This document shows, in pieces, positions 28 through 30,301 of a stretch of 30,301 nucleotides of DNA. The DNA is taken from contig JBMFOP010000033.1 of the NCBI GenBank assembly GCA_049969675.1, forward strand, positions 1-30,301, written 5' to 3'. The stretch's first letter is position 1. Each line of letters opens with the position of its first letter. A program made the translations under genes and the position numbers. Origin of the DNA: Myxococcota bacterium (GTDB lineage: Bacteria > Myxococcota > SpSt-1050). Under the pieces are notes generated by a model. The model was not told the origin of the DNA. It did not search any database and was given only the letters and a program-made list of their open reading frames with translations.

Positions 28-116
28 TGAATTCTACAACTTTAGGTCGTGAAAAATGTCTTGACAGATGTGGGGTGATATGCTAATAAGTAATTTCTAA
101 ATGAAGGAGAATTAGA

Positions 117-674
117 ATGACAAAGAAAGCAAAGATTGAATTTAATGAGAATGTGACAGAACATACCATCGTAGGGGGAAGGGCAATTAAGCGAGTTGGG
201 AAAAAGACTAAAGTACCTATTGGTATTGAACGGATATTACTACTTGCCGCTTCTAATTCCGATTTTAAGAAGAGGTTGATTGAAAATAGAGATGCAGTCA
301 TAGATGAGATGAAGGATGCTCTCACCGAATCCGAGCGATTAATCATTGAAAACATACCTGATGAACAGTTGAGATTTATGATTCAGACAATAGATATAAA
401 AAGCTCCAGCAGAAAAAAATTCTTTAAGAGTGTTGCTGTCGCCTGTGCGATTGCAATTGCCTCAAGTGCTACTAACCTATCCTGTGAAGGTGAGACAGAA
501 ATGCCTGATGTTGATGTTCCAGAATATCATGATGTAGGTGGATTACATACTGATATACTAACAGACATACCTAAAGATGAGACAATTATGTTGGATGTCC
601 CAGTATCTTTTGAAACTGGAGGGGATAGGCCAGATATCCCGGATGATTCGTCTGATGTAAATGAAGAAGAGTAA
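117..674 (+). CDS. NHLP-leader-like / internal Tat-lipoprotein-signal protein, putative radical SAM substrate (RiPP-like precursor)
   Basis: SD AAGGAG at about 104-109. IERILLLAASNSDFKKRLIENRDAVI resembles the NHLP leader core (A..D..FR..L..DP). It is followed by SRKKFFK, a hydrophobic stretch, NLS-C123 and an acidic tail. The stop overlaps the next ATG (TAATG). Confidence 0.7.
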   Translation: MTKKAKIEFNENVTEHTIVGGRAIKRVGKKTKVPIGIERILLLAASNSDFKKRLIENRDAVIDEMKDALTESERLIIENIPDEQLRFMIQTIDIKSSSRKKFFKSVAVACAIAIASSATNLSCEGETEMPDVDVPEYHDVGGLHTDILTDIPKDETIMLDVPVSFETGGDRPDIPDDSSDVNEEE

Positions 675-2128
675 TGGAATATAATCAAAAGGACATAACC
701 CTTATCAATTTAAATATGTTGACAATAAGACACAGGGATATTATTGAGCGTGAGCCGCATATCGTGTTAGGTCCACTTTACCTCATTGCTCAATTGAATA
801 GAGATGGGATAAGTGTTGATTTTAGAGATTATCAGCTCTGCAATTATGAGGAGTTATTTACATTAGATAGCTTTTTATCATTCTGTAATAATCCCTCAAA
901 AATTATAGGTATCTCTGTTATGGCAAATCTTTTGCATTTTGCGATACTTGCTGCAAAGGCTCTTAAAGAGAGATATCCAGATAGAGTTATTATACTTGGA
1001 GGCGTGGGTCCTTATGGGGTTGAAGAGAAGATTCTGACACGCTTCCCATTCATAGATATTATCGCATACGGTGAGGGAGAAAGAAACATCTCTGCACTTG
1101 TATCTGCCTTACATTATAATAGAGACCTTTCAGAGATAAAAGGCATCTATTACAGAATGGATGGAAAGATTATTAAAAATCCCCCTTCTGAGCGTATTAC
1201 CGAACTTGATAAGATGGGATTGCCTGCATACTATGCCATTGATTACAGGAAATATTCTGGCTGCAATATCATTACATCAAGGGGATGTCCATATCTCTGT
1301 AGTTTTTGTAGTGTAGCCCCAATATGGGGGAGGTGCCCTCAATTTCGCAGGCCTGAATCCATTGTTAAAGAGATGGTCTTCCTGAATAGAGAATATGGAG
1401 TTGAACTGTTTTTATTTCAGGATGAATTCTTCGTAAACTCCAGGGATAGGGTAATAGAATTCTGTAGATTATTAAAGGCATCTGGCTTAAAAAATATTAT
1501 GTGGAAGGCATTTGCTCGTATTAACCTCACCGATGAAAGAGTACTCAAGGAAATGGGTAAGGCAGGTTGTATTGAGATTAGGTACGGTATTGAATCGGGC
1601 TCAAATAAGGTACTAAGTCGTATAAAAAAGGGATTTACCATCGAAGAGGCTGCGGGAGTCGTCTCAAAGGCTATAAAATTTATCCCGAGGGTTGATACAT
1701 TCTTTATCTGGGGATTTCCTTTTGAAACGATAAAAGACTTTTATTCTACAATATTTCAGATGATACATTTTAGACTTATTGGCACAAGGGTATTACCTTC
1801 ACTTTTGTGTTATCTTCCTCAAACAGATATTTATATAGAATATAAAAATATAGCAAAGTTTGAATTCTATCCTTATCTGTTGCCAGAATATATGATTACT
1901 GGACACGAGCTGTTTGATAATGGCAGATTGATGGTAATTGAAAAATATAGAGATTATTATAAATTTATCAATGAACATCCAGATATCTTTACCGGATTTT
2001 TTCAGATAGATATAGAGAATAATATTTTACCTAAATTTGAGTTATTGAAAAAACACGGTTTCTATTCTCCTTCAGAAGTGGCTGATGCAAAGACAGAGTC
2101 CTGCGGGGCACACTCACCAAGAATTTAA
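674..2128 (+). CDS. B12-binding domain radical SAM protein (class B methyltransferase-like)
   Basis: Cobalamin-binding N-domain (LGPLYL, IIGISV, IILGG, YGEGE). Radical SAM motif TSRGCPYLCSFC at about 1274-1309. FQDE and GIESG motifs. Confidence 0.93.
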   Translation: MEYNQKDITLINLNMLTIRHRDIIEREPHIVLGPLYLIAQLNRDGISVDFRDYQLCNYEELFTLDSFLSFCNNPSKIIGISVMANLLHFAILAAKALKERYPDRVIILGGVGPYGVEEKILTRFPFIDIIAYGEGERNISALVSALHYNRDLSEIKGIYYRMDGKIIKNPPSERITELDKMGLPAYYAIDYRKYSGCNIITSRGCPYLCSFCSVAPIWGRCPQFRRPESIVKEMVFLNREYGVELFLFQDEFFVNSRDRVIEFCRLLKASGLKNIMWKAFARINLTDERVLKEMGKAGCIEIRYGIESGSNKVLSRIKKGFTIEEAAGVVSKAIKFIPRVDTFFIWGFPFETIKDFYSTIFQMIHFRLIGTRVLPSLLCYLPQTDIYIEYKNIAKFEFYPYLLPEYMITGHELFDNGRLMVIEKYRDYYKFINEHPDIFTGFFQIDIENNILPKFELLKKHGFYSPSEVADAKTESCGAHSPRI

Positions 2129-30209: not shown

Positions 30210-30301
30210 AGGAAAAAACGATTGCAAAAGTTAAGATACATATGCGACATTAGGGATTGATGGATTTTTTATTTAAAAGCATACAGGATATTTAGTAGAA
30301 T

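Follow-up and report, generated by a model that had tools for sequence, protein, structure and literature searches.

A conserved pairing of B12-dependent radical SAM enzyme and precursor with a predicted leader domain and internal export signal in a Myxococcota bacterium

Closest described systems

The DAG-RiPPs (DybA/DybH and NedA/NedBC; PMC13056109, 2026) are peptides synthesized by ribosomes and post-translationally modified (RiPPs) for which the main text of that paper describes a cytoplasmic enzyme that modifies a conserved, sometimes repeated motif, after which the product is exported without a dedicated exporter, lipidated on a Cys residue, and cleaved by signal peptidase II; signal peptidase I serves the sister precursors, and some substrates are large proteins. 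Here we analyze a comparable two-gene unit located in a 30,301-nucleotide stretch of DNA (the window) from a Myxococcota bacterium (assembly GCA_049969675.1, contig JBMFOP010000033.1). Its first open reading frame (ORF), ORF1, encodes a candidate precursor, and its second, ORF2, encodes a B12-dependent radical S-adenosylmethionine (SAM) enzyme. In DAG-RiPPs a multinuclear nonheme iron-dependent oxidase (MNIO) acts on Cys motifs, the signal is N-terminal, and there is no leader (PMC13056109), whereas ORF1 is predicted to place a folded leader before an internal signal like those of the twin-arginine translocation (Tat) pathway (from residue 98), and its partner is a radical SAM enzyme. The authors of that paper anticipate that lipidated RiPPs will do without a leader or be follower-based, and neither "Radical SAM" nor "Tat" appears anywhere in its main text (PMC13056109). 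The differences in enzyme, signal position, and leader place the unit outside the DAG-RiPPs as described. An earlier note on this DNA, made from the letters alone, had known of no characterized system with the architecture; RiPPs that are modified and then lipidated are already known, but those in the main text of PMC13056109 have neither a leader domain nor a radical SAM enzyme.

Proteusins and their nitrile hydratase leader peptides (NHLP; TIGR03793) also combine a nitrile hydratase-related helical leader, a B12 radical SAM partner, and several precursors per enzyme, as far as they are described in PMC2887384. The present system differs from them in having no Gly-Gly end, no peptidase-containing ATP-binding cassette transporter (PCAT), and no heterocycle-rich core; its conservation ends at the signal and the Cys. 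PoyB and PoyC, the polytheonamide enzymes, are B12 radical SAM enzymes of the proteusins that methylate unactivated carbons. The nearest leader model is that of Os1348/PosA/PflA (NF038399, PDB 6LK7), in which there is likewise no double-Gly site and no cluster protease, and the enzyme reads a short motif distant from the leader (PMC12636437). PosA differs in its HEXXH and MNIO-nitroreductase enzymes, no export signal is described for it in the available text of PMC12636437, and ORF1 reaches 18.9 bits on the model against a cut-off of 40.

For the enzyme, the best structure and sequence match is MgmA/QCMT, the methyl-coenzyme M reductase glutamine C-methyltransferase (PDB 9CCB; E=4.5e-23, 22 percent identity), which is also a peptide C-alpha methylating B12 radical SAM enzyme but is archaeal, with a cytoplasmic substrate and no leader-bearing precursor in the account of PMC13469106. 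ORF2 scores 92 bits on the MgmA model TIGR04014 against a cut-off of 360. ApyD (NF050148, the top NCBIfam match) and the TIGR03975 RiPP C-methyltransferase are B12 radical SAM enzymes that act on RiPP precursors; ORF2 obtains 158 of the required 750 bits and 91 of 282 bits, respectively, and these longer models (645 and 606 positions) align with it over the shared core only. Split borosins (SonA/SonM) and the LigA fold resemble the leader in offering a four-helix recognition domain that docks on a methylating enzyme (weak match, Z 4.8-5.1), but split borosins have no export signal, and their non-radical enzyme N-methylates the backbone. A published description of this precursor-enzyme pair was not found in titles and abstract openings, in a search that took in few subscription journals and only the main text of PMC13056109, and the system is apparently undescribed.

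Linkage, predicted leader domain, and enzyme of the conserved pair

ORF1 and ORF2 are joined by a TAATG overlap, as the earlier note had reported, and form a conserved two-gene unit. We collected 89 enzyme loci, comprising the best 80 of 429 metagenome matches and nine genome loci including this one; some of these loci nearly duplicate one another. A precursor was present at 67 of them, and conserved linkage, which the earlier note had named as a check, was found at 57 of the 60 loci with at least 900 nt upstream, in 50 cases within 150 nt on the same strand. Precursors were often arrayed two to five per enzyme locus. The absence of a PCAT exporter or protease, also claimed earlier, agrees with the 87 related loci, where no other neighboring gene recurred in more than five; it agrees too with the 99.9 percent complete host genome, in which the C39 peptidase family PF03412 had no match (the control was positive in 7 of 14). 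In five loci (L026, L038, L050, L005, and L025) the enzyme has a Ser/Thr kinase gene nearby, directly upstream in L026. A scan of the phylum, with three candidates scored in each of 401 genomes, placed the enzyme in nine genomes, all of which carry the precursor; strong precursor matches occur in 11, the additional two lying on contigs that end where the enzyme would be, and weak partial matches were seen in two further genomes. Enzyme distances and adjacent leader distances were correlated over 63 loci (Mantel rho 0.71, permutation maximum 0.19), a result that kinship alone could explain. A search with the ORF1 sequence by itself returned only the self match and a 95 percent variant, the family surfacing by way of enzyme neighborhoods, and a profile of 61 precursors then retrieved 1,794 clusters (50% identity, E<=1e-10). 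No precursor paralogue was found elsewhere in the host genome. The single-sequence enzyme scan of genome contigs gave only one distant Clostridium match, which was excluded from all counts. One apparently degraded locus (L115:4666-7872, on G268:C2) runs from the leader through the first 360 enzyme residues in a single frame, with the remainder in another.

Precursor conservation was assessed with 97 non-redundant precursors, and 61 aligned precursors served for family-library matches; an iterative profile rebuilt from its matches converged at 103. The conserved order is TIVGGR, helical domain 33-93, R-x-x-F, Ala-rich helix, and G-C. The TIVGGR residues are conserved at T74, I67, V77, G85, G72, and R82 percent and lie in a stretch (residues 11-30) with a predicted local distance difference test score (pLDDT) of 54-62. 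By itself ORF1 matched NF038399, of the Os1348 NHLP clan, at 17.6 bits (E=0.0031, residues 37-86), the 18.9 bits given above coming from a second scan and both falling short of the curated cut-off; it matched NHase_alpha at E=0.091 (residues 33-82) and had no match to TIGR03793 at E<=1. At E<=0.01, NF038399 was matched by all 61 aligned precursors (best E=5.4e-13), PF14407 by 38, and NHase_alpha by 16, while TIGR03793 was matched weakly by three (best E=0.00038). The precursor profile also found PDB 6LK7 (Os1348) at E=3.1e-6, together with nitrile hydratases. The top fold matches of the leader model were DesB, LigA, the borosin methyltransferase MroM, and SonA, all weak (Z 4.8-5.4), and Foldseek returned nothing for it at E<=0.001. 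In the precursor alignment no Gly-Gly cleavage site occurs at the leader end, and conservation continues through R-x-x-F, the hydrophobic helix, and G-C. NHLP precursors are defined by conservation that ends at a Gly-Gly site and by an exporter (Haft 2010, PMC2887384, in the part available); since both are missing, the leader is best placed, on sequence grounds, as an NHLP-clan member outside NHLP proper. The NHLP likeness claimed for residues ~33-92 is therefore real at clan level and weak for this copy alone, and the narrower assignment to a TIGR03793 or proteusin leader did not survive the profile check.

The binding of the leader by the enzyme, likewise claimed in the earlier note, is supported by modeling of the enzyme with precursor residues 10-125, which gave a score of 0.80, whereas the best of three controls gave 0.00. 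Among solved complexes 116 of 157 attained the docking mark, as did 2 of 215 mismatched pairs; this calibration holds only roughly because our own alignments were used. The runs share at least 51 percent of contacts with a partner pLDDT of at least 65, and in the modeled interface leader residues 31-96 sit on enzyme helices 323-335, 354-369, and 457-465, centered on F361. The model supports docking of the leader on the outer helices of the radical SAM barrel and concerns binding, not catalysis.

ORF2 also proved to be the cobalamin-binding CxxxCxxC enzyme that had been proposed. It possesses C205, C209, and C212, it matches Radical_SAM (PF04055) over residues 199-360 at 66.4 bits (cut-off 29.5), and its model (pLDDT 91) matches the cobalamin-binding radical SAM structures MgmA/QCMT, TsrM, OxsB, TokK, and CysS. 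The B12-binding domain PF02310 was detected at residues 30-142 below its cut-off (27.1 versus 32.1 bits, E=4.1e-6) and is listed for all of the 120 best homologues shown, which, apart from the self match, are 52-65 percent identical to ORF2 along its entire length. The cut-off was reached for none of the 25 NCBIfam families shown, ORF2 remaining below the curated cut-offs of ApyD, BchE, HpnJ, MgmA, rSAM_ocin_1, CUAEP-tail, and ArsL. Judged by alignment, these enzymes form a distinct subfamily marked by the hairpin residues R19/E25/R26/E27/H29 (91-100 percent conserved in 92 sequences; model strands E17-19 and E24-26), M83/N85, F361/Q362, and a C-terminal SCGAHSP tail. Named carriers are metagenome-assembled Myxococcota, Deltaproteobacteria, Desulfomonile, Aminicenantes, and Eremiobacteraeota; an Atlas cluster resembling the enzyme's C-terminal part is mostly from Planctomycetota, and Atlas searches with the precursor and with this C-terminal part named no family. 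The other B12 radical SAM genes of the host have less than 30 percent identity to ORF2. Host contigs C44, C52, and C110 (G000) hold clusters of four to five tandem B12 radical SAM genes, about 14 in total, which are unrelated to this subfamily and without this precursor.

An exact SCGAHSP tail is present at 71 of the 89 loci and in 114 of the 120 proteins, and the tail has a pLDDT below 50. It is lost in L044, L048, L064, L066/L067, and L084; the precursors of L048 and L067 also have no canonical motifs, and those of L044 retain them. Two candidate features were rejected. Selenocysteine in the tail was discarded, no TGA being present at the tail Cys in the 89 loci. His-on cobalamin binding through H29 had been considered because that residue is invariant, but an alignment with TokK sets the invariant N85 at the Trp of the TokK SCYVWN stretch, which we take to cover the lower face of the cobalamin.

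Predicted export signal, repeated motif, and proposed route

Export signals, Cys positions, and motifs were scored in the 94 precursors of sufficient length, three truncated members of the 97 having been dropped. R-x-x-F is conserved at 83 percent for Arg and 89 percent for Phe in the 97 precursors; of the 94, 40 have RRxF, a further 14 have two basic residues, and 22 have RA. In 81 of the 94 a Cys follows the conserved Phe by 14-28 residues, with Gly, Ala, or Ser just before it in 76 and a varied -3 position, and most of the 13 precursors without Cys have long cargoes, several after A-x-A-like sites. ORF1 matched formate_TAT at E=0.16 (residues 96-124), TIGR01409 was matched by 9 of the 61 aligned precursors, and the profile reached a NapA signal peptide only at E=0.72. 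The hydrophobicity of the h-region is 2.27 in this copy and 1.9-2.1 in family medians, compared with a median of 2.91 and a 10th percentile of 2.38 for 113 host lipoprotein signals chosen by a simple pattern. The host genome encodes TatC (E=3.1e-69), LspA, and Lgt; the Lgt matches (G000:C4:330-2567, three pieces, likely two genes) adjoin lspA.

The 62-residue tail of ORF1 contains 21 Asp/Glu residues, and the earlier note had proposed this acidic tail as the target; its acidity and length stand, but the target is probably a repeated G-x3-D motif specifically. This repeat, like TIVGGR and the SCGAHSP tail, lies outside what that note had described. Precursor cores hold one to seven copies of (T/S/P)-x-G-(I)-(R/Q)-P-D-x-P, and the relatives at L085, L082, and L086 have canonical T-x-G-I-R-P-D repeats. 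The pattern G..PD occurs 157 times in the 94 cores and 10.3 times in shuffles, and sites scoring on the family matrix are present in 79 cores; copy 2 of ORF1 scores 13.8 bits (threshold 7, with 2.25 sites expected in shuffles). In an independent set, consisting of the 150 best representatives chosen by leader only, G.RPD was found 187 times against 1.1 in shuffles and was present in 95 of the 129 parsable members. For the 23 acidic cores, which include ORF1, G-x3-D was counted 65 times versus 28.4 +/- 4.7, other spacings were at chance, and the only constant residues were Gly and the Asp at +4. The last motif copy frequently finishes close to the C terminus, 21 of 79 cores having its Gly seven residues from the end. 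Variant P0002, on a 975-nt contig, has an 8-residue tandem duplication directly before motif copy 1 that may illustrate repeat expansion or be an assembly artifact.

Cargo was scanned in 85 long representatives of the 150. PP-binding-like domains were found in nine, besides one fused case, carboxypeptidase-regulatory-like domains in four, and TonB_C in two; most had no family. The peptide product of the earlier note fails as a general description, since 13 of the 94 lack a Cys, large cargo domains occur in many, and the product is often a protein. The leader, signal, and motif appear from these sequences to behave as a portable tag joined to many cargoes. PP-binding precursors recur as a type with domains behind the export signal flanked by motifs (P0123, P0135, P0144, P0147, and L085:929-1972), and at L111:6914-10919 (G004:C64) three more precursors lie 3-6 kb upstream, two of about 570 residues with TonB-C/AgmX-like cargo by eye.

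We favor, with a confidence somewhat above even, a minimal two-gene system in which leader-guided C-methylation of the motif is followed by Tat export, lipidation, and LspA cleavage. According to the complex model, the NHLP-clan domain would dock on the outer barrel helices in the cytoplasm without a RiPP recognition element (RRE). With SAM, its [4Fe-4S] cluster, and cobalamin the enzyme would then C-methylate every G-x-x-(P)-D in the unstructured core, and the internal, weakly hydrophobic Tat-like signal would carry the modified protein across the inner membrane. Lgt would lipidate Cys123 and LspA would cut ahead of it, and because this cut would remove leader and signal together, a dedicated protease or exporter would be unneeded. 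For ORF1 this would yield a lipid-anchored acidic peptide of 63 residues bearing one or two modified motifs, whereas Cys-less relatives would probably release a soluble cargo protein at a signal peptidase I-type site. The single likeliest reaction, by analogy and at a probability well short of even, is C-alpha methylation of the motif Gly to D-Ala, with methylation elsewhere in the motif about as likely; Gly is favored because nothing but it and the Asp at +4 is constant and because QCMT, a peptide C-alpha methylase, converts Gly to D-Ala in vitro (PMC13469106, in the part available). That one B12 radical enzyme writes D-alanine into G-x-x-P-D of lipoproteins and secreted proteins, as a portable modify-then-export tag, is a somewhat more doubtful extension.

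Several observations weigh against the favored route. The twin arginine is kept in just the 40 precursors mentioned above and is eroded in one large derived clade. Although the segment claimed as a Tat-like lipoprotein signal (98-123) is present, this copy is atypical for its family, having RK rather than RR (S-R-K-K-F-F-K against the S/T-R-R-x-F-L-K consensus of Tat substrates) and a non-canonical lipobox with Asn at -3. That an export signal behind a folded 90-residue domain would be cut by LspA is an assumption. No matrix-scoring motif is found in 15 of 94 cores, only one of the two sites of this copy scores, and the acyl-carrier-like (PP-binding) domains of 9 of the 85 long representatives are normally cytoplasmic. 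The leader fold matches do not exceed Z 5.4, and three of the 60 loci with sufficient upstream sequence (L026, L041, and L052) have an enzyme without a precursor in view. On the enzyme side, the conserved tail is unexplained by methyl transfer, and the MgmA match is barely ahead of TsrM, OxsB, TokK, CysS, and AprD4; the fold, which does not set methylases apart from OxsB or AprD4, therefore does not predict the reaction.

We regard as improbable, although it fares best among the rivals, an alternative in which substrate and export are the same and the chemistry at the motif Gly or its neighbor is a cross-link, thioether, epimer, or backbone break, with the C-terminal Cys/His tail as H-atom donor, sulfur donor, or metal ligand. 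The near-invariance of a tail that is disordered in the model is consistent with such a role, and NCBIfam includes Cys-tailed B12 radical SAM families (CUAEP-tail and the RCCLKC-tail ArsL), for which ORF2 is far below cut-off. Precedents exist in the sources as available: a Cys serves as H donor in radical SAM epimerases and QCMT is likewise able to epimerize (PMC13469106), and ThnL forms thioethers. Against this, the tail has been lost naturally in about five lineages, L044 having perfect motifs without it, no TGA replaces its Cys, and most B12 radical SAM enzymes of known function are methyltransferases (PMC12931638, in the part available).

Slightly less probable still is that the precursor is an uncleaved membrane tether or transducer, its helix spanning the inner membrane and its TonB-like spacer or cargo facing the periplasm, which would hold the enzyme at the membrane to act on a lipid or small molecule. 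The complex model, which gives docking and no catalysis on the tail, would suit this arrangement, as would the poorly retained twin arginine and the TonB_C cargo and Pro-rich spacers that recall TonB topology. A tether needs neither the conserved G/A/S-Cys (76 of 94) nor one to seven motifs at a fixed G-x3-D spacing, however, the helix is weakly hydrophobic for a permanent anchor, and the two to five precursor paralogues commonly found per enzyme are as expected for substrates. Finally, a classical multi-core RiPP, with a transient lipid anchor and motifs cut out by housekeeping proteases as small diffusible peptides, would accord with the variable low-complexity spacers between repeats, the last repeat often near the C terminus (21 of 79), and the protease-free clusters of PosA/PflA, the nearest named leader family (PMC12636437, in the part available), but it is the least probable reading, as no conserved protease gene or cleavage signature between repeats was found and the motifs flank folded cargo domains in many members.

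Accessory setting, feature coordinates, and significance

The window covers contig C33 from its first base to base 30,301, in a 3.05-Mb assembly that is 99.9 percent complete, and because it begins at the contig end, the left flank is outside the assembly. Feature coordinates are collected in Table 1. The observation of the earlier note is borne out and its interpretation is supported in part.

Table 1. Positions in the window of the two genes, their predicted elements, and the empty-site form.
Feature	Position	Strand	Remarks
Shine-Dalgarno-like GAAGGAG ahead of precursor ATG	103..109	+	Sequence reading
Precursor gene ORF1, 185 aa	117..674	+	N-terminal motif, predicted NHLP-clan leader domain, internal export signal, Cys, acidic core
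TIVGGR motif, residues 17-22	165..182	+	Conserved in 97 precursors; low model confidence
Predicted NHLP/Os1348/LigA-clan four-helix leader domain, residues 33-93	213..395	+	Predicted enzyme docking; pLDDT 89-97
Internal Tat-like export signal, residues 98-122	408..482	+	S-R-K-K-F-F-K and weakly hydrophobic helix
Cys123, predicted diacylglyceryl attachment and signal peptidase II site	483..485	+	Non-canonical lipobox N-L-S-C
Degenerate motif copy 1, V-G-G-L-H-T-D, residues 140-146 (G142...D146)	534..554	+	G-x3-D; below matrix threshold
Motif copy 2, T-G-G-D-R-P-D, residues 167-173 (G169...D173)	615..635	+	Predicted modification site
TAATG stop/start overlap (TAA and ATG)	672..676	+	Translational coupling; sequence reading
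B12-dependent radical SAM enzyme gene ORF2, 484 aa	674..2128	+	Uncurated subfamily; no RRE family match
N-terminal beta-hairpin/loop, R19, E25, R26, E27, H29	722..760	+	Possible motif-reading surface
CxxxCxxC [4Fe-4S] motif, C205, C209, C212	1286..1309	+	Invariant in alignment
Outer barrel helix 354-369	1733..1780	+	Center of predicted leader-docking site; F361 97 and Q362 92 percent conserved
Flexible C-terminal S-C-G-A-H-S-P tail	2099..2119	+	Conserved; C477, G478, S481, P482 invariant
Extent of the cassette that the empty-site form lacks (one contig of run X1)	32..2122		Joint 31 to 2123

The two-gene unit is accessory in this host, as seen from congeners without the genes, a differing left flank, low GC content at third codon positions (GC3), and the empty-site contig. 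Neither ORF1 nor ORF2 had a match in three congeners (85-97 percent complete). Homology with these congeners begins at ~2141-2148, and each has different genes left of a shared pair of genes, encoding a 78-residue protein and an aminotransferase; the site left of the 78-residue gene (~2141; L116-L118) is a rearrangement point. The GC3 values of the precursor and enzyme genes are at the 5th and 9th percentiles of long host ORFs. In run X1, the contig with the joint has 31 letters on its short side, and another contig covers 1941-2113; on the evidence of that one contig, forms with and without the cassette may coexist in the run. The joint also removes the stop region of the enzyme. The cassette ends have no junction repeat longer than five bases. 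No carrier element was found, given that viral contigs yielded no relative and plasmids only a 32 percent match.

A promoter and terminator scan was at chance level (10 versus 9.6) with no site 5' of ORF1, and no promoter claim is made for a TTGACA at 61-66. A short hairpin (TCTCCT-loop-AGGAGA region) at 7-28, at the contig start and just left of the empty-site joint, is not called a terminator. The 78-residue Cys/His-rich ORF (2216-2452, + strand) has two C-x4-C-x8-C-x2-H-like repeats and no family above cut-off; it precedes the aminotransferase gene in congeners G002 and G003 too and likely encodes a small zinc-binding protein.

Consisting of two genes that can be expressed directly, the pair lends itself to testing whether a B12 radical SAM enzyme recognizes a leader without an RRE, and about 1,800 distinct clusters of such precursors are currently annotated as hypothetical. 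Were the D-alanine assignment correct, it would apparently be the first natural Gly-to-D-Ala protein modification described, and, as a tag, it would have a housekeeping signal peptidase doubling as leader protease. The proposed route, if true, might also supply a tool for site-specific, tag-directed C-methylation. It would be a leader-dependent path to lipoprotein RiPPs, which the authors of the DAG-RiPP study thought unlikely (PMC13056109, main text), and would show how an export signal and an N-terminal leader can be combined in one protein. RiPP logic would then reach beyond small diffusible products to the envelope lipoproteins and secreted proteins of uncultured bacteria from several phyla.

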